Positions 799 through 24,944 of a stretch of 64,000 nucleotides of DNA are shown here, piece by piece (position 1 is the first letter of the stretch; each line of letters starts with the position of its first letter). The position numbers were made by a program, and so were the translations under genes. The notes beneath the pieces are model-generated. The model had not been told where the DNA came from. It worked only from the letters and a program-made list of their open reading frames with translations, and ran no database searches. The stretch is from Planctomycetota bacterium (lineage in GTDB: Bacteria; Planctomycetota; PLA2; JAEUHO01). The stretch spans positions 1,548,082 to 1,612,081 of the forward strand of contig CBDCTJ010000007.1 in the NCBI GenBank assembly GCA_965222115.1, written 5' to 3'.

Positions 799-3099
799 GT
801 GGTCCTCGAGAGCAACCATCCCATGTCTCATGAACAGTCTGGAGGTATAGCGCCCCCGCGCACGCGCGGCGTTTTGCTTCTCAATCTCGGCTCGCCCAGC
901 GGATGCGACCCGCGTTCGGTGCGGCGCTACTTGGCCGAGTTTCTTGCCGATCCCGAAGTGATCAAATTGCCGCGCGGTATGCGGTGGTTTGGGAAACCTC
1001 TTGCACGCATGATCGCGCGCTCTCGCGCCAAGCAATCGGCCCACGCCTATGCATCCGTATGGACCGACGATGGTTCTCCCTTGCTCGTGATTTCTGACGC
1101 GCAGGGCAGGGCGCTTGCCCATGTGTTGGGACGTGCATTCGATGTGCGGGTGGCCATGCGTTACGGTCATCCTTCCATTGATGATGTTGTTGCGTCGTTC
1201 GTCGAGGATGACATTCACGACGTCACAGCGGTTCCGATGTATCCTCAGTTTGCCGGCGCGACCACAGGCACCGCGTTGGCCGCGCTGTATCGCGCCTTTG
1301 AACGTCACGCGCGAGACACGGAACTTGTCGTTCGCAATGCGTGGTACGACGATGCGGGCTACATTCAGGCCCAAGTCGCGGTACTTAACGAGGCAATCGC
1401 GAAGCACGGCCTCACGCCCGACAACACCACGCTTGTATTTAGCGCCCACTCTCTGCCCGTGGCCTACATCAAGGCCGGCGATCCGTACCAAAAGCACATC
1501 GTGGAAACCGTTCACCTTGTGTCAAAGGCTCTTGGGTGGCCAGAAGAGCGCATCACGCTCGCCTACCAATCCAAGCTTGGTCCGGTGGAGTGGCTCGCGC
1601 CGCAAACCGCTGAAGTCATCGAATCACTTGCTAAGAATGGCACGCCCAACGTTTTCGTGTGCCCCATCAGTTTCACGGCGGACTGTTTGGAGTCGCTTGA
1701 AGAGCTCGATATCCGTGGGCGCGACGTAGTCGAGGCGCACGGCAGCAACTTCCATCTTTGTCCCGCGCTCAATGATCACCCTGCGTTCATTGAAGCGCTG
1801 GCAGGAATTGTCCGACGAGGGACGCGGCCTATCGCGTTGGAATCCAAATGTTCGGATGATGCTCCCGCTCAGCTCGATGCCGACTGGATGAGCCGGTTGG
1901 TGGTCACGGGCCTATCGCGCGAGCCTGGCGCACTCGACGCATTGCGTGATGCGGGCGTCCACATTACTAACCATGTTGATGATGCCACGTTTGCCGCGAG
2001 CAAGCGCACCCACCAAGAGGTGCGCGGACTCTGCTCGGCGCTAGGGGAGCGTGGTGTCGAGCAGAGTGTGGTTGTTTCTACGTGCGCGCGTGTGGAAGCC
2101 TATTCGCTCGCCCCGGCCGCGAGGGAAACCGAACAAAGGAGAACGATCACACGCTTACAATCAACATTGCTAACGGACGTCCATGACGCCTCCCACCCTC
2201 AAGTGCACGTTGGCCATGAGGCCTACCGACACGCGGTGTTGACCGCGGCGGGGCTATTGAGCTCTTTGCCCGGCGATAACGACGTCAGGCTTCAGCTTTG
2301 CAGTGCGGCGCGCACGGCGGAAGATGTTGCCCACGGCGCAACAGCTATCGGCATGGTCATGACACGGGCAACGGAAGCCGCCCAAGCCCTGTCGGAGGCA
2401 ACCACGTGGCGTGATTTCCGCGTGGGGTTTGCCGATGTCGCCTTGGATGGAATTTCTCGATCGGCTTCCGTGGACTGGACGCAGATGCGATCCGTTGTTG
2501 TGTTGGGTGGGTCCACGACGGCGCGAAGCACAATTCACACGTTGCGAAGGCGTCATGGCGTGCGTCCTTCTCAGCTAACGGGCATCTACCGCACGCGCAG
2601 CCGTGGAAAACAGCTCAAGGCGCTACGCCAAGCGCTGCGCGGCGCAACACCGTTGCGTGTCGATCGCTACGATGACGCGCGTGTACTCGATGCGCTGGCC
2701 CATGCCGACGTAATCGTGTTCGCGCACGATGCTCGTGAACCGATCTGGTCCGCCGAACAGGCCATGACACGCAGCGCTCAGACCAAAGTGATCATTGATT
2801 TCAACTCGTTCCCATCCACACGAGGGTTTGAAGACGACGAATCAACCGCATTGTGGCGACTCTGCGACATTGAGGCCGTTGTGCGTGACTATGCGGCTTC
2901 ACTTGCGGGTTGTGAGCGATTCCGCGTTGCCGTCCGCGAGGCGTTGGCGTGGCTTGAAGAACACATTGGTGCCACGCGCGAGGGTCGATCCATGGACGCC
3001 CGCCCGAGAAACGACCGCGTGACATGTACGCGGAGCGGTTGCGGTTGCAAGCGCGCCTTCGTGCCCGAAGTTCGCACGCGTGTGGAGACGGTGTCGTGA
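799..3099 (+). CDS. hemH: ferrochelatase (HemH) fused in-frame to a glutamyl-tRNA reductase (HemA)-like domain
   Basis: N-terminal ~330 aa match ferrochelatase (GVLLLNLGSPSGCDP...YLAEFLADPEVIKLP; C-terminal CPALNDHPAFIEALAGIV). The C-terminal ~400 aa carry HemA-like motifs: VVVSTCARVEAYSL (cf. VVLSTCNRTELY with the catalytic Cys), HAVLTAAGLLS (cf. HLMRVASGLDS), a degenerate dinucleotide-fold stretch VVVLGGSTTARSTIHTL, and ADVIVFAHD (cf. ADIIISSTAS). A single uninterrupted 766-aa ORF. The true start may be the internal Met (MSHEQSGG...) about 24 nt downstream. Confidence 0.75.
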   Translation: MVLESNHPMSHEQSGGIAPPRTRGVLLLNLGSPSGCDPRSVRRYLAEFLADPEVIKLPRGMRWFGKPLARMIARSRAKQSAHAYASVWTDDGSPLLVISDAQGRALAHVLGRAFDVRVAMRYGHPSIDDVVASFVEDDIHDVTAVPMYPQFAGATTGTALAALYRAFERHARDTELVVRNAWYDDAGYIQAQVAVLNEAIAKHGLTPDNTTLVFSAHSLPVAYIKAGDPYQKHIVETVHLVSKALGWPEERITLAYQSKLGPVEWLAPQTAEVIESLAKNGTPNVFVCPISFTADCLESLEELDIRGRDVVEAHGSNFHLCPALNDHPAFIEALAGIVRRGTRPIALESKCSDDAPAQLDADWMSRLVVTGLSREPGALDALRDAGVHITNHVDDATFAASKRTHQEVRGLCSALGERGVEQSVVVSTCARVEAYSLAPAARETEQRRTITRLQSTLLTDVHDASHPQVHVGHEAYRHAVLTAAGLLSSLPGDNDVRLQLCSAARTAEDVAHGATAIGMVMTRATEAAQALSEATTWRDFRVGFADVALDGISRSASVDWTQMRSVVVLGGSTTARSTIHTLRRRHGVRPSQLTGIYRTRSRGKQLKALRQALRGATPLRVDRYDDARVLDALAHADVIVFAHDAREPIWSAEQAMTRSAQTKVIIDFNSFPSTRGFEDDESTALWRLCDIEAVVRDYAASLAGCERFRVAVREALAWLEEHIGATREGRSMDARPRNDRVTCTRSGCGCKRAFVPEVRTRVETVS

Positions 3100-4517
3100 G
3101 CTCTCTAGAGGTTGCCGTTGATCGCGAGGTGTTTCAGCGATACGTCGGTCTTTCACTTCCGCGGCACGTCTCCTACCCCATGCCCACATGGTGGTCGGCC
3201 TTCGACTCACGTGACGCAAAGCGTCTGATTGACCGTCGCACGGAACGCACGACGTTCCACGATTTGTCTCTGTATATCCACATTCCTTACTGCCAAGCGC
3301 TCTGCAAGTTCTGTGCGTGCTCGCGCGTGATTCAACGCAAGGAGGGGCGCGGTGCGGCGGAGCGAACGCAGGCTTATGTGGATGCGTTGGTGCGGGAGAT
3401 TCGATCCGCGGGCCGCAGCAACAACGCCGCGCAGGTTAGGCAGATTCACTACGGCGGCGGCACGCCAACCTATTTGTCGATCGAACAACTCCGTGCGATC
3501 CACGATGCCATCAACGATACGTTCGACATCGCCTCCGATGCGGAAGTCGCGATGGAGATCGATCCCCGGGTGACGAGTGACGAGCAGCTGGATTTGCTTG
3601 CCGACCGTGGCTTCAATCGACTGTCCCTGGGCGTGCAGGACTTTGACCGGACGGTGCAAGAGCATGTCCATCGCGTGCAGCCCTACGAGCAAGTGAAGCA
3701 GATCGTGGATGCCTGTCGTGTGCGTGGGATCGCGTCCATCAATTTCGACCTGATCTATGGACTGCCGTACCAAACGATGGACACCGTGTCCGATACGCTC
3801 GCGCGTGTGATTGAACTTTCGCCCGATCGCGTGGCCTACTATCACTACGCACAGATTCCCGACACAATTGCTACCCAAGTTGCCATCCATCATCACGCCA
3901 TGCCCGATTCCGACGTGAAGTTGGACATGTTCACGAAGGGCGTGCGTGTGTTCACGGAAGCCGGGTATCGATTCATTGGACTCGATCACTTTGCGCGAGA
4001 CCACGAGGGGCTTGCCAAGGCTGAGGACGACGGCGGGTTGCATCGAAATTTTCAGGGCATGACCACCGGAGCGGCGCTCGATCTGGTGGCTTTCGGTGCC
4101 AGCGCAATCAGTGAGTGGCACGACCTCGGCTATCTACAAAATGTCCGGGATCCCGTTGCCTACGTGAGCGCGATCAACGCAAACGGAACCGCCGTCCATC
4201 GTGGAATGGCGCTTTCGGATGACGATCGCATCCGCAAGGCAGTGATTCACCAGATTTATTGCCATGCGCGAATAGTGCCCGCTCACATTGAATCCCAGTT
4301 TGACATTTCATTTGGAGCCTATTTCGAACGTGAACTCGACCAGTTGAATGACTTGGCATCAGACGGCATCGTGATTCCCGAGGCCGATGGCTCGTTCTCC
4401 ATTCCGTATCCTCTGGGACGGGTATTGATGCGCAATGTTGGTGCGATTTTCGACGCCTACTTGCCCGACGAGGCCTATCGCGTCGGATGTCGAAGCACCT
4501 ACTCGACGAATGCGTGA
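3096..4517 (+). CDS. hemN: oxygen-independent coproporphyrinogen III oxidase, radical SAM (HemN)
   Basis: Radical-SAM CxxxCxxC motif (YIHIPYCQALCKFCAC). Length of about 473 aa fits HemN rather than the shorter HemW. A GTG start overlaps the upstream stop (GTGA), so the ORF-track start at 3024 is re-assigned. Confidence 0.85.
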   Translation: MSSLEVAVDREVFQRYVGLSLPRHVSYPMPTWWSAFDSRDAKRLIDRRTERTTFHDLSLYIHIPYCQALCKFCACSRVIQRKEGRGAAERTQAYVDALVREIRSAGRSNNAAQVRQIHYGGGTPTYLSIEQLRAIHDAINDTFDIASDAEVAMEIDPRVTSDEQLDLLADRGFNRLSLGVQDFDRTVQEHVHRVQPYEQVKQIVDACRVRGIASINFDLIYGLPYQTMDTVSDTLARVIELSPDRVAYYHYAQIPDTIATQVAIHHHAMPDSDVKLDMFTKGVRVFTEAGYRFIGLDHFARDHEGLAKAEDDGGLHRNFQGMTTGAALDLVAFGASAISEWHDLGYLQNVRDPVAYVSAINANGTAVHRGMALSDDDRIRKAVIHQIYCHARIVPAHIESQFDISFGAYFERELDQLNDLASDGIVIPEADGSFSIPYPLGRVLMRNVGAIFDAYLPDEAYRVGCRSTYSTNA

Positions 4518-5589
4518 AGCCATGCATCAACGCCTGCCCACAAACGATCTTGTGTTGCGTGCCGCGCGCGGCGAACCGACGCCGCGCACGCCTGTGTGGT
4601 TCATGCGTCAGGCGGGCCGCTTCGATCCTGCCTATCGCGCGCTCAAGGAACGCGAGCAGCGGCCGCTTGAGGCGATGTTCGCCGACCCCGACATAGCCAC
4701 CGAGGTCACATTGCTTCCGCAACGCTATGGCGTAGATGCCCTAATTCTTTTTCAAGACATTCTCACAATCTGCGGGCCGATGGGGGCGCGCTTTGTGTTT
4801 CGGCCGGGTCCCGTTCTGGCGCATCCGATTCGAACCGCCCGTGATGTTCAGGGATTGCGTTCCATGAGCCCCGAAGACGACATGCCATATGTGTCGGCCT
4901 CGATTCGGCACGTTCTGACTTCCGTGGATGGTGCGTTGCCGCTGCTTGGGTTTGCCGGTGCACCGCTCACCGTCGCCGCCTTCATGGTTGCGGGCGAGAG
5001 TCCAGGTGCGGACCTTGCCGACCTCCGGACGATGATGCGCGAGTCACCCGAGGCACTGCACGACCTTATGCGTCATCTCGCTGCGCACACAAGCCGCTAT
5101 CTGGACATGAAAGTTCGCGCGGGCGTTCACGCCGTTCAACTCTTCGAATCCATGGCCGATCGTTTGTCTGTAGACGAATACAACACGTGGGCTCTTCCCT
5201 ATCAGCAACAAGTGTTTACGTCGATGCATGAAGCGGCCACGCGAATCATCTTCGCCAAGGGTTTTAGCGACGTTCGTGCGCTGCTTGCCAGTGGCGCCGA
5301 GTGTTTGAGTGTGTCCGGTGACGTAGACCTGCGCGTGGCTCGCGCGCGACCTGACTGTGAGACTGTGGGCATCCAAGGCAACCTTAGCAACGTCTTGCTT
5401 CGCGATGGAACGCCCGACGAAGTGGAGCGTGCCACGCGTGCGTGCATTGATGCGGGGAGGCACAGGGGCCATATCCTCAATCTCGATCACGGGCTCTTTC
5501 CTACCACGCCACCCGAGAACGTGTCGCGCGCGATTCAAACAGCAAAAACATATGTTGTCTCTGCGCCGACAGGCCCACGCACAGCATGA
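4510..5589 (+). CDS. hemE: uroporphyrinogen decarboxylase (HemE)
   Basis: N-terminal NDLVLRAARGEPTPRTPVWFMRQAGR is the classic UroD signature. The start was moved from the ORF-track Met to an internal Met that overlaps the hemN stop (ATGCGTGA). Confidence 0.9.
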   Translation: MREAMHQRLPTNDLVLRAARGEPTPRTPVWFMRQAGRFDPAYRALKEREQRPLEAMFADPDIATEVTLLPQRYGVDALILFQDILTICGPMGARFVFRPGPVLAHPIRTARDVQGLRSMSPEDDMPYVSASIRHVLTSVDGALPLLGFAGAPLTVAAFMVAGESPGADLADLRTMMRESPEALHDLMRHLAAHTSRYLDMKVRAGVHAVQLFESMADRLSVDEYNTWALPYQQQVFTSMHEAATRIIFAKGFSDVRALLASGAECLSVSGDVDLRVARARPDCETVGIQGNLSNVLLRDGTPDEVERATRACIDAGRHRGHILNLDHGLFPTTPPENVSRAIQTAKTYVVSAPTGPRTA

Positions 5590-6965
5590 GTGCCATTGAA
5601 ACGAACGTGGCCATCGTAGGTGGTGGGATTTCAGGGCTTGTTTGCGCGTGGACGCTGGCGCGCGCGGGCACGTCGGTCGCGCTTCTTGAGGCGAGCAACG
5701 AGCTCGGTGGCTGCATGCGTACGTCCCATGGTGACGGCGTGTTGTTTGAACACGGTCCCTTCAACGTCTTGGCGAGAGCGCCTGCGTTTGTCAACTTACT
5801 ACAAGCGTGTGAATCGGACGTGGGTGTGGTGTCGCTGGCCGAGGCAAGTCGCAAACGCTATCTCGCTAAGCGTGGGGCGCTTCATGCGATTCCCATGTCG
5901 CCGTGGGGTTGGCTCAAGTCGCCGTTGCTATCACCCATGGGGCGGCTGCGCCTCTTGCGAGGTGCGCTTGTTAGTCGACGCGCGCCCAAGAGAGAAGAGA
6001 CGATCCATGAGGCCGCTACGCGACGGTTGGGACGCGATGCCGCGGAGGTACTGGTGTCATCGGCCGTGGCCGGTGTGTTTGGTGGCGACAGCAAGCAGAC
6101 ATCACTTGCTGCCGCGTTTCCTCACGTAAGCGACGTCGATCGGCAAACGCGGAGTCCATTGATGGCGATGGTGCGGCGCGCCAAACAGCGAAAGCGAAGC
6201 GATCAAACCCGCCCCGCAATGATTAGCTTCAAGAACGGCTTGCAGTCACTGGCGGACTGGCTCGGCGCAAACCTCAGCGATGGCGTATACCGCGAACACT
6301 TGGTCTCCTCGATTGTGCCTCGCGACAACGGCTGGCACGTTCACGCCAAGCATCACGGTCGCGAAGTGACTGTCGAAGCAAACAAGGTCGTTCTCACCAC
6401 GCCCGCACGTGCCACGGGGTTGCTCGTGCGTGAGTTGGCGCCGAACGCCTCCGAAGAGTTGATCTCGCTCCCCACGTCCACCATGGCTGTAGTCAACTTG
6501 CTCTACGCGCGAAACGACGTCGCTCATCCGTTGGATGGCTACGGATTTCTCGTCCCCAACACAGAGAGCCAGCCGAAGTGTTTGGGCGCGCTGTTCGCCG
6601 ACGCGGCGTTTCCACACCACGCGCCGGAACATCAGTGCATTGTGCGTGTGTTCTTGGGCGGTCATCGCGAACCCGACATCTTGGCGCGCACCGACAAGGA
6701 ACTTCGTGCGCAGGCGCGCGAAAGTGTTGAACCGCTGCTGGGCATCTCGGCTCAGCCTCGTTTTGCGCCCGTCATGCGCTGGCCTCGCGCCATTCCGCAG
6801 TACGCGATTGGTCATGCCGAGCGCATGGCCACAGTCGAGCGCGACGTGGCTCGTTTACCGGGATTGCATCTCGTGGGCAACTACCTGCGTGGGGTGTCAA
6901 TCAATGACTGCGTGCGTGAGGCCGACGCACTGGCGAGGCGCATCCTTGCGGGGGAAGCATCGTGA
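5586..6965 (+). CDS. hemY: protoporphyrinogen oxidase, FAD-dependent (HemY/PgoX family)
   Basis: N-terminal Rossmann FAD motif VAIVGGGISGLVCAW. Length and internal motifs fit the HemY/PPOX family. The start ATG overlaps the hemE stop (ATGA). Confidence 0.8.
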   Translation: MSAIETNVAIVGGGISGLVCAWTLARAGTSVALLEASNELGGCMRTSHGDGVLFEHGPFNVLARAPAFVNLLQACESDVGVVSLAEASRKRYLAKRGALHAIPMSPWGWLKSPLLSPMGRLRLLRGALVSRRAPKREETIHEAATRRLGRDAAEVLVSSAVAGVFGGDSKQTSLAAAFPHVSDVDRQTRSPLMAMVRRAKQRKRSDQTRPAMISFKNGLQSLADWLGANLSDGVYREHLVSSIVPRDNGWHVHAKHHGREVTVEANKVVLTTPARATGLLVRELAPNASEELISLPTSTMAVVNLLYARNDVAHPLDGYGFLVPNTESQPKCLGALFADAAFPHHAPEHQCIVRVFLGGHREPDILARTDKELRAQARESVEPLLGISAQPRFAPVMRWPRAIPQYAIGHAERMATVERDVARLPGLHLVGNYLRGVSINDCVREADALARRILAGEAS

Positions 6966-7996
6966 CAATCAGCGAATCCTTGGGCTCCCCGCGAGGGATA
7001 CCGGAGCGTCCACGGCGCTTGCGTCGCACGCCCGTCATCGCCAATCTTGTTCGCGAGATACGTGTACACCCAAGTCAACTTGTGCTGCCCGTATTCGTTG
7101 TGGAAGGGCGCGAAATAGTTGATCCCATCGAGGCCATGCCGGGATGCGCGCGGCGTTCCATCGACGCACTGATGTCGCAATGCAAGGAAGCCTACGCATT
7201 AGGCATTCGTTCCTTTGCGCTGTTTCCCAAGATCGACGACGCATTGAAGAATCCCCAAGGATCGGAAGCGCTCAACGAAGACGGCCTTGTTTGTCGGGCC
7301 GTCCGGGCCCTGCACGACGCGCTCCCAGACGCCTGCGTATTTACCGATGTTGCACTTGACCCCTTCTCGTCCCACGGGCACGATGGACTCGTGGCCGACG
7401 ATGGTCGCGTACTCAACGATGAAACCGTTGACATCTTGGCTCGCATGGCCGTTGTACACGCGAAGGCGGGCGCCGACTTTGTGGCGCCGTCCGACATGAT
7501 GGACGGACGCGTGGGGGCGATTCGACGCGCATTGGATGGCGACGGGTATTACGACGTGGGCATTCTCTCGTATTGCGCCAAGTACGCGTCGGCGTTCTAT
7601 GGACCGTTTCGCGAAGCGCTCGATTCCGCACCCGTCGATCTTGCGCACGTACCGAAAGACAAGACGACCTATCAGATGGATCCAGCCAATGCGCGTGAAG
7701 CGTTGCGCGAAGCAAGGCTCGACGAGCAAGAGGGCGCAGACCTATTGATGGTGAAACCTGCACTGCCCTACCTCGATATCGTGCATCGACTGTCCATCGC
7801 TTCATCGCTGCCTATTGCGGCGTACCACGTGAGTGGTGAGTACGCGATGGTGCGTGCCGCCGGGGAGCGCGGCTGGCTCGATGCCGACGCCTGCATGCGC
7901 GAGTCGTTGATTGCTATCGCGCGGGCGGGCGCGCGCGTGATCTTTACTTACGCGGCCGTGGACTACGCGCGCTGGTGGCGTTCCACAATGGCTTGA
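6962..7996 (+). CDS. hemB: porphobilinogen synthase (delta-aminolevulinate dehydratase, HemB)
   Basis: PRRLRRTP...NLVREI N-terminus and the conserved ALAD core (GADFVAPSDMMDGRV, SYCAKYASAFYGPFR). A GTG start overlaps the hemY stop. Confidence 0.9.
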   Translation: MTISESLGSPRGIPERPRRLRRTPVIANLVREIRVHPSQLVLPVFVVEGREIVDPIEAMPGCARRSIDALMSQCKEAYALGIRSFALFPKIDDALKNPQGSEALNEDGLVCRAVRALHDALPDACVFTDVALDPFSSHGHDGLVADDGRVLNDETVDILARMAVVHAKAGADFVAPSDMMDGRVGAIRRALDGDGYYDVGILSYCAKYASAFYGPFREALDSAPVDLAHVPKDKTTYQMDPANAREALREARLDEQEGADLLMVKPALPYLDIVHRLSIASSLPIAAYHVSGEYAMVRAAGERGWLDADACMRESLIAIARAGARVIFTYAAVDYARWWRSTMA

Positions 7997-8631
7997 GCGA
8001 GCGCCTCAAGCGACGGCGTGGGCGCCTCCACCCAGAGTTCATGACCCGCGGACTGGACAGCCCGACTTGTTGTGGGGCCAAGGCTGGCAAAGGGTCGTGT
8101 TTCGTTCTTCAGCGCGGAGACGGCCGATGGACTCGTAACGGCAATCACCGTCGCAGATGATACGCGGTCGAAGTCAAACGCGCGCCGCGTTGTTTCATAG
8201 ACGATGGGTGCCGAGAACGATGAAAACCCGTGCGACGTAGGAACGTCTGCGAGATTCGAGCGCGCATACACGACGCGACCGGTGGGGGACTTCCTTCGTA
8301 GCGACGTAAAGAGTGCGTCAACGCCGGGACCCGGACCCATCAGCGCGCACCGTGCGCCGCGCGCTTCGAGAGCATTCTTTGTAGCTGGACCCACGGCGGC
8401 GAGTTTCGGTGTGTGCAACATGTGTTCCGGCAGTGCGTCAACCGCGAATGCACTCGTAAGGACGAGCCAGTCGTTTTCACAAAGCGATTCAAAATCAACG
8501 GGAAGCTCGTCCACCACGCGACGTTCGAGTACGGGTTCCAGGAGAACGTCTACGCCAGCATTGCGTAATGCACGTGAAAGGGGGCCACCCTCGGATTCAT
8601 CTCGCGTGACCCATACGCGCAAGCCGTCCAC
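7963..8631 (-). CDS. hemD: uroporphyrinogen-III synthase (HemD)
   Basis: 222-aa ORF (LRVWVTRDESEGGPLSRALRNAGVDV...) with the HemD fold pattern. It sits directly downstream of hemC on the - strand. Its 3' end overlaps the hemB 3' end convergently. Confidence 0.8.
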   Translation of the reverse strand: MDGLRVWVTRDESEGGPLSRALRNAGVDVLLEPVLERRVVDELPVDFESLCENDWLVLTSAFAVDALPEHMLHTPKLAAVGPATKNALEARGARCALMGPGPGVDALFTSLRRKSPTGRVVYARSNLADVPTSHGFSSFSAPIVYETTRRAFDFDRVSSATVIAVTSPSAVSALKNETRPFASLGPTTSRAVQSAGHELWVEAPTPSLEALAQAIVERHQRA

Positions 8632-8634
8632 TGA

Positions 8635-9531
8635 CTAGTCCTCACTCAGGGTATCGGCGTCGATCAGCATGCGCGCCAACTCGCGACCGACGCGTTCCGG
8701 GTCACGGCCAACGTGGGTGCCCGAGCCCACAAGCGTGCCCTCTGTCGTAAACAACTGTCCGTGCAACGAAATGACGTCACTGGCAATCGACGCCAACGCA
8801 CCAATGGGCGTTTGGCATCCCGCTTCCGCCTCATGCATGAATGCGCGTTCCGCGGTGACGGCCTTGCGTACCGTTGCATCGTCCAGATCCGAGACGAGCA
8901 CATGCGCGGCGCCATCGGCGCGTGTTTGCACCGCAAGCGCTCCTTGCGCGGGTGCGGGCACGAACTGAAATGCTGGTAGTACCAGTGAACATTCCGGTTC
9001 GATGCCGAGGCGGCGTACGCCGGCCGCGGCTAATACGATGGCGTCTAAGTTGCCTTCGTGAAGTCGTTTGATGCGGGTGGGCACGTTGCCACGAATAGGG
9101 ACGACCGTATGCGCCGCTTCCAGCAAGAGCTGTGCGCGGCGACGGGCACTGCCGGTGCCAATCGTCATGGGTGACTTTAAGCCATCGAGCGTGACAGGTC
9201 GTTTGGCGATGAGCAGGTCTTCTACCGCCGCGCGCGAGGGTACTGCTGCGATTGCGAGTCCCTCGGGAGACGTAGTCGGAAGATCCTTCATGCTATGAAC
9301 GGCGACGTCGATCGTTCCTTCGAGTAGCGCATGTTCCAATACGCTCACGAATGCGCCGCGTTCCCAGCCCGCTTCGGACGGTACGCTGCCTTGCGAGGCA
9401 TCGCCCACCGTCTTGACGACCACGGTTTCGATTTTGAGCGTCGGATGACTGCGCGCAATGGCGGCCGCAACCCAGGCGGTTTGCGTTCGTGCCAAAGCAC
9501 TGCCTCGTGTTCCCAGTCGAAGCGTTGTCAC
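8635..9531 (-). CDS. hemC: porphobilinogen deaminase / hydroxymethylbilane synthase (HemC)
   Basis: N-terminal LRLGTRGSALARTQT motif and the HemC core. A 4-bp overlap with hemL upstream. Confidence 0.9.
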   Translation of the reverse strand: MTTLRLGTRGSALARTQTAWVAAAIARSHPTLKIETVVVKTVGDASQGSVPSEAGWERGAFVSVLEHALLEGTIDVAVHSMKDLPTTSPEGLAIAAVPSRAAVEDLLIAKRPVTLDGLKSPMTIGTGSARRRAQLLLEAAHTVVPIRGNVPTRIKRLHEGNLDAIVLAAAGVRRLGIEPECSLVLPAFQFVPAPAQGALAVQTRADGAAHVLVSDLDDATVRKAVTAERAFMHEAEAGCQTPIGALASIASDVISLHGQLFTTEGTLVGSGTHVGRDPERVGRELARMLIDADTLSED

Positions 9532-10838
9532 TCGGCTATCTCTTGCAGCGACTCGCGGGCGGCACTCACGATTTGATCGATGTCGGTTTCGGTGTGGGCC
9601 GAGGAAACGAAGAATGCCTCGTAGCTACTTGGCGGAAGCCATACGCCACGCGCCAACATGGCGTGGAAGAATGCTGCGTAGCGCTTGTGATCACACGCGG
9701 TGGCATCGACATAGTCGCGCACCGGTTTCTTGGAGAACGACAGGCCGAGCATGCCGCCAAGCGCATGGGTATGGAGTGGAATCTGTAAGTCTGCGCCGGC
9801 ATTCGCAATGCCATCGGCGAGACGTTGCGAAGTGGCGTGCAACTCGTCATAGAAGCGCGGGGCTTGACACAGTTTGAGCGTGGCAAGGCCACTCGCCATG
9901 CCAAGTGGATTGCCGCTCAACGTTCCCGCTTGATACATAGGCCCGAGCGGGCTCACGAGTTCCATGATCTCGCGCCGTGCGCCATACGCTGCAACGGGCA
10001 TGCCGCCGCCCATGACTTTACCTAAGCACGTAATGTCGGGCTTGATGTTGGCGTGTACTTGGTAGCCGCCCCACGCGACGCGAAAGCCCGTCATCACCTC
10101 GTCGAACACAAGCATGGCGCCGTACTTGGTGCAGAGTTCGCGAAGTCCTTCCAGGTAGCCGACCACGGGCGCCACAAAGCCCATGTTGCCCGCTACGGGC
10201 TCAACCATAATGCCCGCGATGTCGTCACCCTGTTCACGGAACAGTGCCTCCACCGCTTCGAGATCATTGAACGGCACAAGTAGCGTCCCCGATGCAACCG
10301 GCGCCGGAACGCCCGCGGAGTTTGGCACGCCTGTCGTTGCTGCACCCGATCCCGCCGCCACGAGCAAACCATCGGCATGACCGTGGTAACAACCGATCAT
10401 CTTGACGATTTTGGTGCGCGCGGTGGCCGCTCGCGCAAGTCGCATAGCACTCATGGTTGCCTCGGTGCCGCTGTTTACGAACCGGAGCATGTCCATACTA
10501 GGCAGTGCATCGAGGATCAACTCTGCGAGTTCGGTCTCAAGTGCGCAGCATGCGCCAAAGCTCAGGCCGTTCGCAGCCGCTTCCTGTACGGCATCGACGA
10601 CTGCGGGATGGGCATGGCCCACGATGGCGGGTCCCCAACTCCCAACCAGATCGAGGTAGCGATTGCCATCCACATCGATGATCGTGGCGCCGCTTGCGGA
10701 CTTTACGAAGGCTGGCGTACCTCCCACGGAGCCGAAGGCGCGCACGGGACTGTTGACGCCACCAACCAGCACCCGCTGCGCGCGCTCAAACATGATGGTG
10801 GATCGGGATCGTGGTGTGGAACTGTCAGACGCTTGCAT
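9528..10838 (-). CDS. hemL: glutamate-1-semialdehyde 2,1-aminomutase (HemL)
   Basis: FERAQRVLVGGVNSPVRAF N-terminus and a PLP aminotransferase class-III core (VFDEVMTGFRV). Confidence 0.9.
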   Translation of the reverse strand: MQASDSSTPRSRSTIMFERAQRVLVGGVNSPVRAFGSVGGTPAFVKSASGATIIDVDGNRYLDLVGSWGPAIVGHAHPAVVDAVQEAAANGLSFGACCALETELAELILDALPSMDMLRFVNSGTEATMSAMRLARAATARTKIVKMIGCYHGHADGLLVAAGSGAATTGVPNSAGVPAPVASGTLLVPFNDLEAVEALFREQGDDIAGIMVEPVAGNMGFVAPVVGYLEGLRELCTKYGAMLVFDEVMTGFRVAWGGYQVHANIKPDITCLGKVMGGGMPVAAYGARREIMELVSPLGPMYQAGTLSGNPLGMASGLATLKLCQAPRFYDELHATSQRLADGIANAGADLQIPLHTHALGGMLGLSFSKKPVRDYVDATACDHKRYAAFFHAMLARGVWLPPSSYEAFFVSSAHTETDIDQIVSAARESLQEIAE

Positions 10839-18530: not shown

Positions 18531-21500
18531 ATGGCTCGCAAGCAAGAAGCGAAGAACGCAAAGACTCTAGGTCGCCAAGATTACGCGCGACCGTTTGTTC
18601 AACGTCCGTTGGGGTTGCTCCTGGTCGGCGTTTGTACCTACCTGGCTTCGATCGCAATGCTCTCTGGAGTACTGCGTCCTGATGCTGACGCTGCTCCTCC
18701 GCCCATGATCCCTTTGGGGGCGAATCTAAAAGACACTGCGATCACGTCGGACACACAAAGCAGTCTCAAGATGGGGTATGCCGTTGACCCTGGTGCAGGA
18801 GGCGTGCACGAGTTTGACCTCAGCTCTTCCTTGCCAACAAAGTTCATCGACTTGGGGCCTCCCAACCAAAATACGATCTCAAAGGTCGATATGAACGACA
18901 CCACCGGCGAGCTTGCCATGGGCAATGCAAACGGCGACGTGATGCGGATTGACCCATCTTCGAGCACCGTTACCACAGTAGCCACAATCTCAGGCGACGC
19001 GAAGGTCCTCATGGCGGATGAGAGTTCTCCTAGCACCGAGGCCTGGGCAACTGACGGCGCCACGAGTCAGTTGATGGAAATCAAGACTTCCGGAGCGACC
19101 TACGGTCAGGGCATGATGTCATTTCCCAATGGACCATTTGAGATGTCGGGAAAGCCTAGTCAGCCAGATTCAAACGTTTTCGCATTGGGGAAGGGGTCGG
19201 CAGAGATTGTTCGGTTTGACAGCGCGACTCTGACGTTCTATGACGACTCTTACGGTACCGCAGTTGTGAAGCCGACTGGGCTTGCAGTGGGCGATGGAGA
19301 CTATTGTTACGTGTCGGTTGAGAACGGAGCAGACAGCGAGCTGCTCCAAGTGGATACACGTGCCGCCACATTTGGATTCGTCACACCGATCTTGCACACG
19401 TTCACTGGAACCGCCGCAGTCGACGTTTCGATTGCCGGACCATGGGTGACTGTACTCCTGGAGGACTCGGGAACGAGCAGCACGGTTGCTCATGTCTTTG
19501 ATGTTGGAAATCCAGGCAGCACGCTTGAAGTCGGAACGGTAATGCTTCACGGCGGCCAACTTCCCTATGGTGGACTGACGACCTGGCTCGAAGATGGTGA
19601 GAGTTACGACGACTTGAATTTTCTCTACTCGGGCGCTACGCAAGATGTCGGGTATGTTCCGGGAACAGAGGTCATGGAGGATTGGAGCTATGGTCCTTCG
19701 ACCGTAGTCACAACCGCAACGAACAAGCCGATCATAACCAACGCGGCTTCCGGTGCGTTTGCGCAAGAGGCGCTGAACTGCACAGACTGCCCGTGCCCTC
19801 CCTTTGACGCCGAGGCACAGGGCATGATCCCCGGACCGACGCCAGATGCGCACGGGAGTACGGAGACTGGCGTATCCAACGCAGCCGCAAGCCCAGGAAG
19901 TGTCCAGTACAGCACCGGCGAAGAAGTGCTGACTCATAACCTGGTCACGTTTCCGGGCGTCGGCCTTGATCTGACGCTGAGCCTCACCTACCGATCAAGG
20001 AGAGACTACAAGCACCGCTACGGGAACAATTGGTTCTTCAATCACGACGTCCGAGTGCATCCAGAGACAAATGGTGATGTGACGTATCAAAGTCCGTATG
20101 GGCGACTGGATACGTACAAGACGATCGGCTCCGGGAGCTTCCAGTCGCCGGTGCATTACGATACTACCTTGGTTGTGCTGCCCGGCATCGGCCACCAAGT
20201 AACCGATCGCTTCGGCACAGTAAGCACATTCGATCTCCTCGGACAGCGCATTAGTCTGGCAGATCGATACCAGAATACGATTGCATACACGTGGCAAAAC
20301 GGGCTATTGACAGGGATCAGGGACACCCTCCTGCGGGACTACGTACTCAACTACGACGCCAACGCAAGGCTCTCAAGTATCGTGGACTACGGCGGTCGTA
20401 TTTGGACGTTCAACTATGACTACATGGGGAACCTTAGAACCATCAGTGCACATGGCTCAAACGGGGTCGCCGGCACGTTCTTCTCATACACCAGTAACGA
20501 TCCTCAGGTGAAGTTCCAGGGGAACCTCCTGCATGTCACGAATCCCAACGGTGAGCGGGCTCAAACGCTTGAGTATGACGAACACGATATGGTCGTGAGG
20601 GAGAAGCTGGGAGATGGTGAATACTTCTTTAGCTACGACACCAATCTTCAGCAGACAACCGTCATAGACAGAGTCGGTACCAAGACGCGGTGGACATTCG
20701 GCGCCTTTGCCGTTGCTACTGAAAAACGTATTTACAATCAGGGTATTCGCCCGAACGCGCCGGTCGGAAGCTGGGAAGACACGAAATGGGAAGTCGACCC
20801 CAACACCGGAATGGTGGTCACTGAGTCCTACTACGCAGGCGGGCGAACTGAGTTCATCTATGATAACAAACTAAACCTGACTAACGTTCGCCGCAAGTTG
20901 ATCGATACCGCTACGGATAGTTCTACCGATCTCGTTACGACATACGAATACGCCGTTCAGAAGTTTAATCAGCTGAAAGGGATTACCGATCCCATGGGCA
21001 ACTACACTGCCATGACGATCGATCTGAGCGGGAACACTATCTCTACTACGCGACCTACCGTGACGCAGCCCGTTTCGCAGACGGCGACGGAGGGCGCGAC
21101 ATTTGATACCCGAGGGCGGATCACATCCTCAACCGACTCCGAGGGGCGCCTCACGACGTTTACTTACTACAACACAGGTGTTCAGTTCGGCTATTTGTAT
21201 CAAGTCATCCGCGATCCAAGTGGACTCGCTCTCACGACGACGTTTGATTATGACCAGTACGGAAATGTGATCGCCGTAACCGATCCGCTAGGCAAGAAGA
21301 CGGAAATGACGGTGAACCTAGGAAACTACGTCACCGAGATCAAGGCGCCTGCACCGCTCAACTACCGAAAGAAGCTGAGTTACGACAAGAACGGGAATCT
21401 GACGCTTGTTGAGACGGAGAACATTGATAAGGACGGCGTACTTGACGCGACGACCCCCTGGATTGAAGAGAGCTACACCTACAACGAGCTGGGTTGGCGT

Positions 21501-24500
21501 CTATCGTCAACCAGGAGCCTCACCGCGACAGAGGCAGCCACCACGTCGTTTGAGTACGATTTTGAGGGACGAGTAGTCCGGGTGGCTGATCCGACCGGAA
21601 TTTGGACGAAGTTTCAGTATGACGAGCGGGGGTTCTTGTTCAAGATCAAGCGCGCGGTGCAGGATGCCCCGAACACAACAACGGTAACGACGCTCCATGA
21701 CGCTCGCGGCAATTTGATTAGCACGACTGACGCCGAAGGAAATACAACAGCCAGTATCTATGACAACTATGATCGCATTACTAGGCGAACGAACGCACTA
21801 GGAAACTATATAGCGTGGACGTATGACAAGAACGGGAACGTGTTGACTTCGGCTGCGTACGACGCATCCGCCGTTCTCCAGTCTCAGACGACCAATCACT
21901 TTGACGAGCGCGATCGAATTTGGAAGCGCGTGCGAAGCCGGTTTGGGCCGGGGCTTACGCCAAGTTATCCAACGATGACGATTCAGCACGATATGACGAA
22001 CCGTGTCACTGAGATCAGAGATCCACTCAACAACAAGACGACCTACTCGTACGACGCCGTAGGACGGCAAGTCTTGGTCCAAGACGCCATCGGAAATGAA
22101 ACCGAGTGGATTCTCGATGCGCGCGGGCAAGCTACAAAGATCAAGCGCAAAGACATTCCTACCGCCGGTGGATCGGAGACATTTGAGACGGAGTTCGTCT
22201 ATGACGTGCTCGGGCGCATGACTTCGCGTCGTGAGATCGATCGACTTAACGCATCCAATATTCTCACGACCAATTTTTCCTACGATAGTCGTGGGAATCT
22301 GACGTTCCGAGTTGACGCCGAGGGCAACCCGGTGCGTTGGACGTACGATCTGGCCAGCCGTCAGACAAGTTACGAGCGCGCGTTGGCAACGGGTACGGGT
22401 ATTGAGGACTTTACGAACAGCATTCTTGAGACGGCGACCTATGACGCGGCGGGTCGGCTTAAGACGATTTCCGATGACAACCTGAACACGACAATCTACG
22501 CGTACGACAGTCATGGGCGGATGCATCAGACGACGTTTGCCGACGCCAAGACGGTTTCGCTCACATTTGACAAGAACAACCTCGTAAAGACCCGTACGGA
22601 TCAAAACGGTACGGTTGTTACCAATTCGCGTGACGTTCTTGGCAGGCTGACCTCCCGATCGATTGCGAGGGCCAGCGGGGTCTTGGGAGATTCCTCAGAA
22701 GTCTACACTTACGACGCGCTCAATCGCGTTACGAAGGCGTGGGATTCAGACTATCAGGTGGTGTTCACTCGTGACAGCATGGGGAACCTTCTGTCGGAGA
22801 AGCAAGGATACTCGGTTGCCGGTCAGGAGAAGTGGAAGACTGTAACGTCTTCGTATACCGACGCGGGTTCTCGGAGCGTATTGAGTTATCCCAGCGGATT
22901 CATTGTTTCCTATCAGCGTGACGCGATTTACCGCATGACGATCATGACGGATGCGTTGGCGTCGGCAAATATCGCCACCTTCACGTTCCAGGGGGCGAAT
23001 CGGCTTGCTAAGACGACGAACCAAAACTCGACCACGACCGATCACGGCTACGATGGCTTTGCGCGACTCTCGCAACTTGATCACAAGAATGGTTCGAGCC
23101 AGAGTTTCCACATGTTTGATTATTTGTATGACAAAGTGCACAACCGGCGAATGGAGAAGAATTCGTTCAATTCCACCTGGATCAACGCGCTGCCCTCCGG
23201 CATTCAGCCGTTCCTAAATGGGAGAAACGGCAAGGGCGATGTCTATGCCTACGATATGGCCTATCGCATGGTGGACACGCGATATGACGTGACTAGTCCT
23301 GCGGCGGAGGTGGCCACGCCCGGTTCGCAAACCTACGTCACCAAGCAGATCTACACGCTTGATGGGCTAGGTAATCGTAGCCAGACACAACAGACGCCTT
23401 GGGGAGGCTCAAGTTCGACGACAACCTACACGTTCAACGCCATGAACGAGTACACGGCGATCGGAAGCACCTCGCGGACACACGACAGCAACGGCAGTCT
23501 GACGAATGATGGCACCCAGACGTATCACTATGACTATCAGAATCGTTTGATCGAGGTCAGGGCCGTTGGGCCGAGTACGCTTATCGCAAGGTATAAGTAC
23601 GATGCGCTGGGTCGGCGTGTAGAGAAGTACGTCGCGTCAGGAACGGCCACCACACGCTATGTGCTTGATGGCTCGGACATAGCCGAGGAGTACGACGGCG
23701 CGGACACTTGGGCAGCGCGATACTTCCATGAAGACCGCATTGACCATCCGCGGGCGATGGATCGTGCTGACATCTCGGATGTAGATGGGGATAGCGATAC
23801 GAGCGAAGTGCTACGCTTTCATTATCACCAGAATGCACTGGGGAGCGTAAGCGAGGTTTCCGCTCCCGGTGGCGGTGTGGTTGAGTGGGTGACGTATGAC
23901 GTCTATGGAAAGGCGACTGTTCGCAACTCGGCTGGAACGACGCAGGGCTCAAGCTTTGTCGGCAACCCGTTCCTGTTCACGGGGCGAGAGTTCGACGCCG
24001 AATCGGGAATGTATCACTATCGCGCGAGAGCGTATGACCCCGAGGCGGGGAGATTCTTGCAGAGAGACCCGTTGGGGTATGTGGATGGACTCAACTTGCT
24101 AGCCTACGTTGCTAGCAACCCTGTAACACTCAATGACCCGTTGGGGCAGGCGATTCAGCTGCACAGTGGGGTAGGTGGAGGTGCACCATTCAGCCATTTT
24201 AGTGCCGTCGGTTGGGGGACAAAACCCGTAAGTGAGGTTATTGGAAGTATCGGAAGCAGTCTACAAGGAGGATTTGAGACGCTCGGCAATTTGATGGCAG
24301 ATGTGGGCGAAGAGATGGCGAGCAGCGTATCGTTGGTCTTGAGGCCGGTCACAGAACTCGGGAATGGCATCAATAGCGCTCTTGGAATAGATGATGAACT
24401 CGCGGCTGCTGAGGAGTACGTAGGTAAGAAAGTTGAGGCGGGAATGAACTGGGCGGGCAGTAAAGTAGGTCTATCTGGGCGAGCACTAGGTGGACTTACG

Positions 24501-24944
24501 GGTGCCTTTGGCGGAGGTACGGCTCTGGCCAGGCGGTTAAGGAGTCGTGGCGCAAGGTCAGCTCCCTCACCAGTCGACTTTGTGGATGATCCTACTCCTC
24601 CGACGACTGTCGTGACGACTGGGACGAGCGCTGCTAAGAAGGCAAAGTGCCCAGTTGTAGTAAAAGAGAGGGTGAGCAAAGGCGCGGATGGCGCAACGTC
24701 GAGGCATATCATTGAGAAGGACGCTGGCGGAAACACTAATTCAAAGACTCATGTCGTAGAAAAGGATGGTGAAATCATCCACCAGCATCAAGAGCATGTA
24801 GGTAAGGAAGGGAGTACTCGGAGATTTCCCGATTCATGGACGGGGACGAAAAGTGTGAATGCGCGCGATCACGTAAAGACTGGCCCAAGAATGCGACCCG
24901 ATCCATCCAGGCCCGATGGGAAAGAGGGTCCCCATGGGAGATGA
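18531..24944 (+). CDS. RHS/YD-repeat polymorphic toxin (2137 aa) with an uncharacterised C-terminal toxin domain
   Basis: N-terminal signal anchor (LLLVGVCTYLASIAMLSGV). Dozens of YD repeats (YTYDALNRVT, YAYDSHGRM, FEYDFEGRVV...). The RHS core ends with the canonical sequence ...YRARAYDPEAGRFLQRDPLGYVDGLNLLAYVASNPVTLNDPLGQ (DPxGL aspartyl-autoprotease motif). A ~265-aa C-terminal extension follows. Confidence 0.9.
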   Translation: MARKQEAKNAKTLGRQDYARPFVQRPLGLLLVGVCTYLASIAMLSGVLRPDADAAPPPMIPLGANLKDTAITSDTQSSLKMGYAVDPGAGGVHEFDLSSSLPTKFIDLGPPNQNTISKVDMNDTTGELAMGNANGDVMRIDPSSSTVTTVATISGDAKVLMADESSPSTEAWATDGATSQLMEIKTSGATYGQGMMSFPNGPFEMSGKPSQPDSNVFALGKGSAEIVRFDSATLTFYDDSYGTAVVKPTGLAVGDGDYCYVSVENGADSELLQVDTRAATFGFVTPILHTFTGTAAVDVSIAGPWVTVLLEDSGTSSTVAHVFDVGNPGSTLEVGTVMLHGGQLPYGGLTTWLEDGESYDDLNFLYSGATQDVGYVPGTEVMEDWSYGPSTVVTTATNKPIITNAASGAFAQEALNCTDCPCPPFDAEAQGMIPGPTPDAHGSTETGVSNAAASPGSVQYSTGEEVLTHNLVTFPGVGLDLTLSLTYRSRRDYKHRYGNNWFFNHDVRVHPETNGDVTYQSPYGRLDTYKTIGSGSFQSPVHYDTTLVVLPGIGHQVTDRFGTVSTFDLLGQRISLADRYQNTIAYTWQNGLLTGIRDTLLRDYVLNYDANARLSSIVDYGGRIWTFNYDYMGNLRTISAHGSNGVAGTFFSYTSNDPQVKFQGNLLHVTNPNGERAQTLEYDEHDMVVREKLGDGEYFFSYDTNLQQTTVIDRVGTKTRWTFGAFAVATEKRIYNQGIRPNAPVGSWEDTKWEVDPNTGMVVTESYYAGGRTEFIYDNKLNLTNVRRKLIDTATDSSTDLVTTYEYAVQKFNQLKGITDPMGNYTAMTIDLSGNTISTTRPTVTQPVSQTATEGATFDTRGRITSSTDSEGRLTTFTYYNTGVQFGYLYQVIRDPSGLALTTTFDYDQYGNVIAVTDPLGKKTEMTVNLGNYVTEIKAPAPLNYRKKLSYDKNGNLTLVETENIDKDGVLDATTPWIEESYTYNELGWRLSSTRSLTATEAATTSFEYDFEGRVVRVADPTGIWTKFQYDERGFLFKIKRAVQDAPNTTTVTTLHDARGNLISTTDAEGNTTASIYDNYDRITRRTNALGNYIAWTYDKNGNVLTSAAYDASAVLQSQTTNHFDERDRIWKRVRSRFGPGLTPSYPTMTIQHDMTNRVTEIRDPLNNKTTYSYDAVGRQVLVQDAIGNETEWILDARGQATKIKRKDIPTAGGSETFETEFVYDVLGRMTSRREIDRLNASNILTTNFSYDSRGNLTFRVDAEGNPVRWTYDLASRQTSYERALATGTGIEDFTNSILETATYDAAGRLKTISDDNLNTTIYAYDSHGRMHQTTFADAKTVSLTFDKNNLVKTRTDQNGTVVTNSRDVLGRLTSRSIARASGVLGDSSEVYTYDALNRVTKAWDSDYQVVFTRDSMGNLLSEKQGYSVAGQEKWKTVTSSYTDAGSRSVLSYPSGFIVSYQRDAIYRMTIMTDALASANIATFTFQGANRLAKTTNQNSTTTDHGYDGFARLSQLDHKNGSSQSFHMFDYLYDKVHNRRMEKNSFNSTWINALPSGIQPFLNGRNGKGDVYAYDMAYRMVDTRYDVTSPAAEVATPGSQTYVTKQIYTLDGLGNRSQTQQTPWGGSSSTTTYTFNAMNEYTAIGSTSRTHDSNGSLTNDGTQTYHYDYQNRLIEVRAVGPSTLIARYKYDALGRRVEKYVASGTATTRYVLDGSDIAEEYDGADTWAARYFHEDRIDHPRAMDRADISDVDGDSDTSEVLRFHYHQNALGSVSEVSAPGGGVVEWVTYDVYGKATVRNSAGTTQGSSFVGNPFLFTGREFDAESGMYHYRARAYDPEAGRFLQRDPLGYVDGLNLLAYVASNPVTLNDPLGQAIQLHSGVGGGAPFSHFSAVGWGTKPVSEVIGSIGSSLQGGFETLGNLMADVGEEMASSVSLVLRPVTELGNGINSALGIDDELAAAEEYVGKKVEAGMNWAGSKVGLSGRALGGLTGAFGGGTALARRLRSRGARSAPSPVDFVDDPTPPTTVVTTGTSAAKKAKCPVVVKERVSKGADGATSRHIIEKDAGGNTNSKTHVVEKDGEIIHQHQEHVGKEGSTRRFPDSWTGTKSVNARDHVKTGPRMRPDPSRPDGKEGPHGR

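Follow-up and report, generated by a model that had tools for sequence, protein, structure and literature searches.

Positions 799-3099 of a 64,000-nucleotide stretch from a Planctomycetota bacterium (contig CBDCTJ010000007.1 of assembly GCA_965222115.1; hereafter, the window) appear to join two enzymes from opposite ends of heme biosynthesis in one gene: ferrochelatase (HemH), which acts last, and a domain resembling glutamyl-tRNA reductase (GluTR, encoded by hemA), which catalyzes the first committed step. This locus raises the questions of whether the fusion is genuine, what its C-terminal half is, and whether that half still works as a reductase. We found that the fusion is real and conserved and not an assembly artefact. 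Furthermore, from its homology and fold, its conserved residues, the genes of the operon and the occurrence of unfused forms, we predict the activity, the cofactor and a reason for the fusion: the protein is probably a bifunctional HemH-GluTR, with the C-terminal half serving as the glutamyl-tRNA reductase of this lineage, and it probably arose by stop-codon loss between translationally coupled neighbors. Overall, a disordered linker joins a complete ferrochelatase (amino acids [aa] 23-340) to a GluTR-like module (aa ~366-727), and the parts are as follows:

799..3099 (+), whole fusion open reading frame (ORF), 766 aa from the GTG at 799, or 758 aa from the ATG at 823
865..1818 (+), ferrochelatase domain, aa 23-340 (Pfam, NCBIfam, 120-sequence alignment)
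1819..1893 (+), linker, aa 341-365 (alignment, structure model)
1894..2418 (+), GluTR-like catalytic domain, aa 366-540 (Pfam GlutR_N; profile against 1GPJ/4N7R; Foldseek)
2080..2103 (+), nucleophile motif T428-C429-A-R431-V-E433-A-Y435, corresponding to M. kandleri Cys48/Arg50/Glu52
2230..2295 (+), substrate-recognition helix and loop H478...G485-L-L-S488-S-L-P-G-D493-N-D495...Q499, corresponding to M. kandleri H84, S94, E99, E101 and Q105
2419..2859 (+), Rossmann (NADPH-type) domain, aa 541-687 (profile, AlphaFold2 model, Foldseek, Pfam)
2494..2526 (+), non-canonical nucleotide loop VVVL-G570-G-S572-T-T574-A-R instead of GxGxxG (alignment)
2587..2592 (+), Y597-R598 at the end of beta-2, aligned with the canonical N-R-T motif (alignment, profile)
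2797..2820 (+), subfamily motif D667-F-N669-S-F-P-S673-T instead of D-(I/L)-x-v-P-R-D (alignment)
2860..2979 (+), two short terminal helices, aa 688-727, all that is left of the spinal helix
2980..3096 (+), disordered tail with Cys743-x4-Cys748-x-Cys750, the cysteines at nucleotides (nt) 3025-3048 (model, sequence)

An earlier, sequence-only reading of this DNA had proposed a single uninterrupted 766-aa ORF in which a complete ferrochelatase continues in frame into a GluTR-like domain, and both the ORF and the fusion were borne out by Pfam and NCBIfam, by profile searches and by homologs. The ORF begins with GTG and runs without interruption. The database copy of the protein (P0001), which is 100% identical, has 758 aa, a length that fits a start at the ATG at nt 823 (Met9). 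The same reading had raised the possibility of a stop codon missed near nt 1800-1900. In such an artefact, two genes would have been merged by a sequencing or assembly error that erased the stop codon or altered the frame. At least 285 relatives were found among 5.8 billion proteins, and both domains are present in all of the best 120, which constituted our alignment set; these full-length homologs, from many projects and assemblers, span the junction at ~40% identity. They come from Phycisphaerae, Phycisphaerales or Planctomycetota metagenome-assembled genomes (MAGs) and, where named by their sources, are called “ferrochelatase.” A genome scan with one genome per species yielded 45 loci, all in MAGs and several on chromosome-scale contigs; nearly all are from Phycisphaerae/Planctomycetota, and two are labeled Gemmatimonadales. 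Both parts form a single ORF in 44 of these 45 loci, and the linker of the window protein aligns in frame with those of its relatives. Although a stop codon and a change of frame separate the two parts in one related locus (L019, 8760-11098), and true unfused gene pairs also occur, a missed stop codon is ruled out as the explanation by the 120 homologs that span the junction together with the 44 single-ORF loci; the probability we would still give to an artefact is negligible. The search of related genomes for the same fusion also qualified the description of it as unusual, which holds for the literature only, since the fusion is common among Phycisphaerae MAGs.

By sequence, the N-terminal half is an ordinary protoporphyrin-type ferrochelatase, full-length and above the curated cutoffs. 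The match to PF00762 (Ferrochelatase) extends over aa 23-340 and covers profile positions 2-315 of 317 (E 2e-98, 329.7 bits against a gathering score of 27), while the TIGR00109 hemH model scores 286.5 bits against a cutoff of 124.6. His217 (in FSAHSLP) and Glu298 (in DCLESLEE), residues with established catalytic roles in ferrochelatases, are invariant in all 120 relatives. A “catalytic histidine” of ferrochelatase is also mentioned in PMC8529089. Mean pairwise identity is 58% in this half and 43% in the GluTR-like half, the latter value being similar in both of its subdomains.

The C-terminal module is a GluTR homolog. Pfam GlutR_N (PF05201) matches aa 406-533 with 47.5-48 bits against a gathering score of 27, and it matches all 31 family members with which we built a profile (A1) of the GluTR-like domain from diverse sequences. 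While the single-sequence match to the M. kandleri GluTR structure 1GPJ is weak (E 3e-4), the A1 profile retrieved 1GPJ from the PDB with an E value of 6.7e-22 over residues 12-323 and the Arabidopsis GluTR 4N7R with 3.5e-19, covering both domains. The AlphaFold2 model of the module is confident (predicted local distance difference test [pLDDT], 86.8; predicted template modeling score [pTM], 0.85), and its seven best Foldseek matches in the PDB are all GluTR chains (E 3e-14 to 4e-12), followed by an unrelated Rossmann enzyme (E 8e-5). These comparisons also bear on whether the module stems instead from another Rossmann family, that of shikimate/quinate dehydrogenase (AroE), an alternative considered in the sequence-only reading. 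Weak NCBIfam shikimate-dehydrogenase matches of 17-21 bits do occur, confined to the Rossmann part, and PF01488 is common to both families. However, the GluTR models outscore the shikimate-dehydrogenase ones and extend over both domains, the PDB search with the profile returned GluTR alone and no shikimate dehydrogenase at significant E values, Foldseek prefers GluTR (~1e-13) to AroE (~5e-4) by many orders of magnitude, and the GlutR_N catalytic domain is found in 31 of 31 members. The profile search, Foldseek and GlutR_N thus refute a shikimate-dehydrogenase identity, to which we attach next to no probability. The expected hallmark domain of ~400 aa therefore stands as a GluTR homolog, albeit one of ~360 aa and without the C-terminal spinal-helix/dimerization domain.

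Two other relationships were considered and set aside. The Chlamydia-type short HemA (NF001909, a 338-position profile) had no hit at E<=0.1 to the window protein and reached merely 25 bits with a member of the stand-alone relatives described below as tier 2, and it was rejected as the parent family. A segment of the Rossmann domain (window ~2650-2830, aa ~618-675; V-x-x-Y...A-D-V-V-x-F-G-x-D...D-F-N-x-F) has weak profile similarity to EngA/Der GTPases (1MKY, E 2e-4), which we took as probably a generic beta-alpha-beta resemblance.

The nucleophile and the glutamate-recognition residues of GluTR are retained. Three motifs had been picked out from the sequence, VVVSTCARVEAY at aa 424-435, HAVLTAAGLLS at aa 478-488 and VVVLGGSTTAR at aa 566-576. 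The first two proved to be GluTR motifs, the nucleophile motif and the recognition helix, respectively, and alignment of the C-terminal half to GluTR structures places C429 on Cys48 of 1GPJ and matches the recognition residues as well, with H478, S488 and positions 493 and 495 corresponding to His84, Ser94, Glu99 and Glu101. According to what Moser et al. reportedly described in 2001, M. kandleri Arg50, His84, Ser94, Glu99 and Glu/Gln101 have roles in glutamate recognition. M. kandleri Cys48 is the nucleophile that forms a thioester with Glu-tRNA and the sole Cys conserved in all GluTRs (PMC3778395). In the alignment, T428, C429, R431 and E433 (the nucleophile motif T-C-x-R-x-E) and Q499 are invariant in 120 of 120 sequences; H478 is present in 107 of 120 and S488 in 118 of 120 fusions, while position 493 is Asp or Glu throughout and position 495 in all but one, which has Ser (119/120). 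These residues are held in place in a half that averages only 43% pairwise identity.

The Rossmann fold is likewise present, both in the AlphaFold2 model and in the Foldseek matches, yet the PF01488 score of 16.6 bits falls short of the gathering score (24.3), with weak matches in 22 of 31 members. Its nucleotide loop, G-G-S-T-T, had been called a weakened or degenerate GxGxxG. It is instead a near-invariant motif of the subfamily, G570-G-S572-T-T574-(S/A), with G570, S572 and T574 conserved in 120 of 120 sequences; position 598 is Arg in 111 of the 120 and Lys in the other 9, and the place of v-P-R-D is taken by an invariant D-F-N. As judged from the alignment, this conservation pattern is that of purifying selection on an altered enzyme and not of decay.

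Genomic context provides a further line of evidence. The fusion is the head of an operon with hemN, hemE, hemY and hemB, beside a divergent arm of hemD, hemC and hemL:

3024..4517 (+), hemN, oxygen-independent coproporphyrinogen III oxidase (TIGR00538, 450 bits vs 325)
4435..5589 (+), hemE, uroporphyrinogen decarboxylase
5586..6965 (+), hemY-type protoporphyrinogen oxidase (TIGR00562, 243 bits vs 98)
6962..7996 (+), hemB, 5-aminolevulinic acid (ALA) dehydratase
7963..8631 (-), hemD, uroporphyrinogen-III synthase
8635..9531 (-), hemC, hydroxymethylbilane synthase (TIGR00212, 266 bits vs 164)
9528..10838 (-), hemL, glutamate-1-semialdehyde aminomutase, which uses the GluTR product (TIGR00713, 585 bits vs 527)

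The hemN, hemY, hemC and hemL products exceed their NCBI equivalog cutoffs. With these genes and the fused hemH, each step from glutamate-1-semialdehyde to protoheme has its own gene, and the GluTR step is represented in the cluster by the fused module only. The absence of a separate hemA from the window, remarked on earlier, was substantiated with the A1 profile, which matched this ORF alone among 547 six-frame ORFs of the 64-kb window; in the 45 related loci, most of which have the same operon order, this profile detected no second GluTR in the 10 kb to each side. Since hemL needs the GluTR product and the window holds no other GluTR, the context supports the module as a catalytic GluTR. Genes of the cluster overlap by 4 nt at the hemE/hemY, hemY/hemB and hemL/hemC junctions. 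Counted from its first ATG, the hemN ORF shares 76 nt (3024-3099) with the end of the fusion, and a GTG at 3096, in a GTGA overlap with the TGA of the fusion, is the likelier coupled hemN start. In L025 and L045, from the MAGs labeled Gemmatimonadales, and in L005, on the Phycisphaerales chromosome CP070691.1, there are no heme genes within 10 kb on either side of the fusion; mis-binning or lateral transfer could account for the two MAGs not labeled Planctomycetota. Elsewhere in the window lie very long ORFs at 18531-24944 (+; 2137 aa) and 28226-31846 (-; 1206 aa).

An exhaustive profile search of 1.84 billion representatives resolved the relatives of the module into three tiers. The first, with 97 representatives at E <= 1e-30, is the subfamily itself and includes fused proteins, fragments and some stand-alone forms; the second consists of stand-alone proteins of 348-378 aa (140-177 bits), and the third of canonical-length GluTRs from ~120 bits down. 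A neighbor-joining tree does not separate fused from stand-alone members, which mingle in one clade; this clade is sister to the 350-aa clade, and both are apart from canonical GluTR. Among the stand-alone members, the 403-aa P0164 starts with a 4-nt overlap with the stop of a 349-aa ferrochelatase gene and is followed by hemN and hemE; this pair was found in two independent samples (L048, 8955-11212; L049, 4587-6844). P0150 is flanked by a sirC-like precorrin-2 dehydrogenase gene on one side and a CbiX/uroporphyrinogen-III methyltransferase fusion on the other, near sulfite-reductase genes, and P0138 is followed downstream by a cobA/hemD fusion. Since the unfused members occupy typical hemA positions, the module can be regarded as an autonomous tetrapyrrole-pathway protein. 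The fused state seems to be derived and readily gained or lost, and the interspersion of fused and unfused forms, together with the 4-nt overlaps between operon genes, fits an origin by stop-codon loss. P0049 (1270 aa) and P0052 (1269 aa) are triple fusions of ferrochelatase, GluTR-like module and radical-SAM HemN, in which the next operon gene is fused too.

The sister clade (P0192-P0207; loci L046 10001-11137, L052 6001-7047 and L053 766-1893) comes from a low-GC, flagellated lineage, and its members, where named, are called “glutamyl-tRNA reductase” by JGI/NCBI. One member lies beside ResB/CcsA with hemD nearby, again a typical hemA position, one between an endonuclease III-like gene and dnaG, and one inside a queF-queC-queE-X-tgt cluster; a queuosine link was dismissed as coincidental, two other members lying outside such clusters.

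Several observations nevertheless weigh against a bifunctional HemH-GluTR. The NCBIfam hemA models give the module only 44-51 bits against cutoffs of 209-429; for TIGR01035, it reaches 43.9-46.2 bits, below the equivalog cutoff of 209.55, while canonical controls reach 387-397 bits. Direct comparison with canonical GluTRs shows that it lacks the GxGxxG loop, the N-terminal H-x-x-A-P-x-x-x-R-E and v-P-R-D, and NADPH binding is therefore putative. Canonical GluTR has a three-domain architecture (PMC4726326), and our canonical controls strongly match all three GluTR Pfam domains, including the dimerization domain PF00745 with 69-76 bits; this domain was found in 0 of 31 members of the subfamily, and in the models of the window protein only ~40 helical residues come after the Rossmann domain. 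The dimerization domain underlies the V-shaped GluTR dimer, into which a dimer of the aminotransferase that uses glutamate-1-semialdehyde (GSA) has been modeled for GSA channeling (PMC3778395). Moreover, we found no assay of any short-subfamily member in the searchable literature, and a canonical hemA or an ALA synthase may be encoded elsewhere in these genomes, our GluTR search having covered the 64-kb window and 10 kb around the 45 loci.

Taken together, the missing motifs, the missing dimerization domain, the scores under the curated hemA cutoffs and a GluTR search that covered the window and the flanks of the loci are points in favor of a different scenario. In it, the module would be non-catalytic or half-catalytic: a pseudo-GluTR with a regulatory or scaffolding role and Glu-tRNA or heme as its ligand, or an enzyme whose chemistry or cofactor has changed through G-G-S-T-T (e.g., an esterase only, or one with another reductant), and the real GluTR would be encoded elsewhere. 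We consider this unlikely. Pseudoenzymes do not typically keep an invariant nucleophile Cys and invariant glutamate-binding residues, as seen here, and an Arg or Lys is conserved at the 2'-phosphate position. Furthermore, the sister clade carries a proper G-S-G-S-T-A (GxGxxA) loop on the same scaffold, unfused members sit in hemA-type slots of siroheme and heme clusters, and the operon has everything except a GluTR. The suggestion that the GluTR-like part is regulatory rather than catalytic is thus disfavored. Because the module agrees with GluTR in its catalytic domain, nucleophile, recognition residues and genomic context but lacks the dimerization domain and a score in the curated range, we place the module in a new short subfamily of GluTR homologs, distinct from canonical HemA and most likely working as GluTR.

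How the halves communicate, if they do, is a separate matter. The linker varies from 19 to 46 aa across the family, is poorly conserved and rich in Pro, Ala, Arg and Ser, and has a pLDDT of <50 at aa 347-356. In the full-length model, the domains are confident (pLDDT 89.3) and the linker is disordered. Because of this disorder and a full-length pTM of only 0.65, a flexible tether appears likelier than a fixed interface, and rigid interdomain packing is not supported by the models. The tail after the GluTR-like module contains C-x4-C-x-C; the Cys-rich tails of relatives have patterns such as CPCP-x6-9-CP(K/R)RL or RWxKCxxC. The tail is reminiscent of the [2Fe-2S] Cys motifs at the C terminus of some ferrochelatases (PMC8529089), yet it is placed after the second enzyme.

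As a speculative extension of a catalytic HemH-GluTR that does not exclude it, the fusion could also act as a control device. Heme or porphyrin bound at the ferrochelatase site or to the Cys-rich tail would inhibit the attached GluTR module in cis, with the end product thereby throttling the first committed step. Such feedback in cis is attractive because canonical GluTR is heme regulated, as is well established (PMC4726326); in addition, the fusion is kept in 44 of 45 genomes, and a tail with at least three Cys occurs in 53 of 118 relatives. On the other hand, the linker is disordered and variable in length, the full-length protein has a pTM of 0.65, as against 0.85 for the domain by itself, with no defined interface predicted, unfused forms exist interspersed with fused ones, and the Cys tail is absent from 32 of the 118 relatives; we therefore regard this extension as distinctly unlikely. 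A more elaborate version would have occupancy of the ferrochelatase site by heme or porphyrin, or iron or redox state sensed by the Cys tail, relayed in cis to the dimerization-less GluTR, with G-G-S-T-T serving regulation or another ligand instead of simply binding NADPH. This version we hold to be very unlikely; if true, it would make the fusion a self-contained control of tetrapyrrole flux in which the first enzyme senses the last.

For the bifunctional HemH-GluTR that we favor, we propose the following model. A stop codon would have been lost between a coupled hemH and a short hemA at the head of the heme operon, leaving two halves joined by a flexible 19-46-aa tether. In the C-terminal half, Cys429 would attack Glu-tRNA(Glu) to form a thioester, with the glutamate held by Arg431, Ser488, Asp493, Asp495 and Gln499. 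A nicotinamide cofactor, probably NADPH, would then reduce the thioester to glutamate-1-semialdehyde, which would pass to HemL, the product of a gene ~7 kb away. The cofactor would sit at the G-G-S-T-T loop, with Arg598 occupying the place of the 2'-phosphate ligand. The main benefit of the fusion is probably fixed 1:1 co-expression and co-localization, with no obligatory structural interface.

The fusion exposes a systematic annotation gap. NCBI and JGI label it as “ferrochelatase” only, and its GluTR half fails the curated hemA model, so that reconstructions of Phycisphaerae and related MAGs will report GluTR as missing, which may wrongly suggest ALA or heme auxotrophy. If the module is active, GluTR can work without a spinal helix, a dimerization domain and a canonical GxGxxG loop, which bears on the long-standing model of a V-shaped GluTR dimer channeling GSA to the HemL dimer. 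Because it naturally ties the last heme enzyme covalently to the first committed one, the fusion is a ready-made system for studying physical feedback on pathway entry and a natural test case both for the need of GluTR for its dimerization domain and for whether the last heme enzyme talks to the first.

Compared with canonical GluTR (HemA/GtrR; TIGR01035; 1GPJ, 4N7R/5CHE/5YJL), the module has the same two-domain core fold, the Cys nucleophile in T-C-x-R-x-E, the His, the GL.S..G(D/E).(D/E)..Q recognition segment, the Arg after beta-2 of the Rossmann domain and the genomic association with hemL and other heme genes. It differs in lacking the spinal helix, the dimerization domain and the N-terminal H-x-x-A-P-x-x-x-R-E, in having G-G-S-T-T for GxGxxG and D-F-N-x-F-G-S-T for D-l-x-v-P-R-D, in its score (44 bits vs the 209.55 cutoff) and in being fused to ferrochelatase. 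The sister clade (348-378 aa) shares the truncated architecture without a dimerization domain, the GLNS and IDFNS motifs and S-T-C-N-R-F-E; unlike the subfamily, it was never fused in the examples seen, its G-S-G-S-T-A loop fits GxGxxA, and it has Gln for the His84 equivalent.

With respect to fusions, we found a single ferrochelatase fusion, HemH-ChdC, in the searchable literature and no account there of a natural HemH-GluTR or of the short GluTR subfamily. Fusions of operon neighbors are frequent among tetrapyrrole enzymes (CysG, CobA-HemD, HemC-HemD); those listed in a systematic survey join consecutive enzymes only (PMC4921024), and we saw such fusions beside the unfused subfamily members P0150 and P0138. 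Channeling explains CysG, CobA-HemD and HemC-HemD, as these join consecutive enzymes around unstable intermediates; HemH and GluTR are not so related, and this explanation does not extend to them. The closest parallel is HemH-ChdC (HemQ) of Cutibacterium acnes (PMC8529089, PMC13564367), which likewise carries a second heme-pathway enzyme at the ferrochelatase C terminus. While HemH-ChdC joins consecutive steps of the coproporphyrin pathway, HemH-GluTR joins the last step of heme synthesis to the first committed one, two reactions with no common metabolite.

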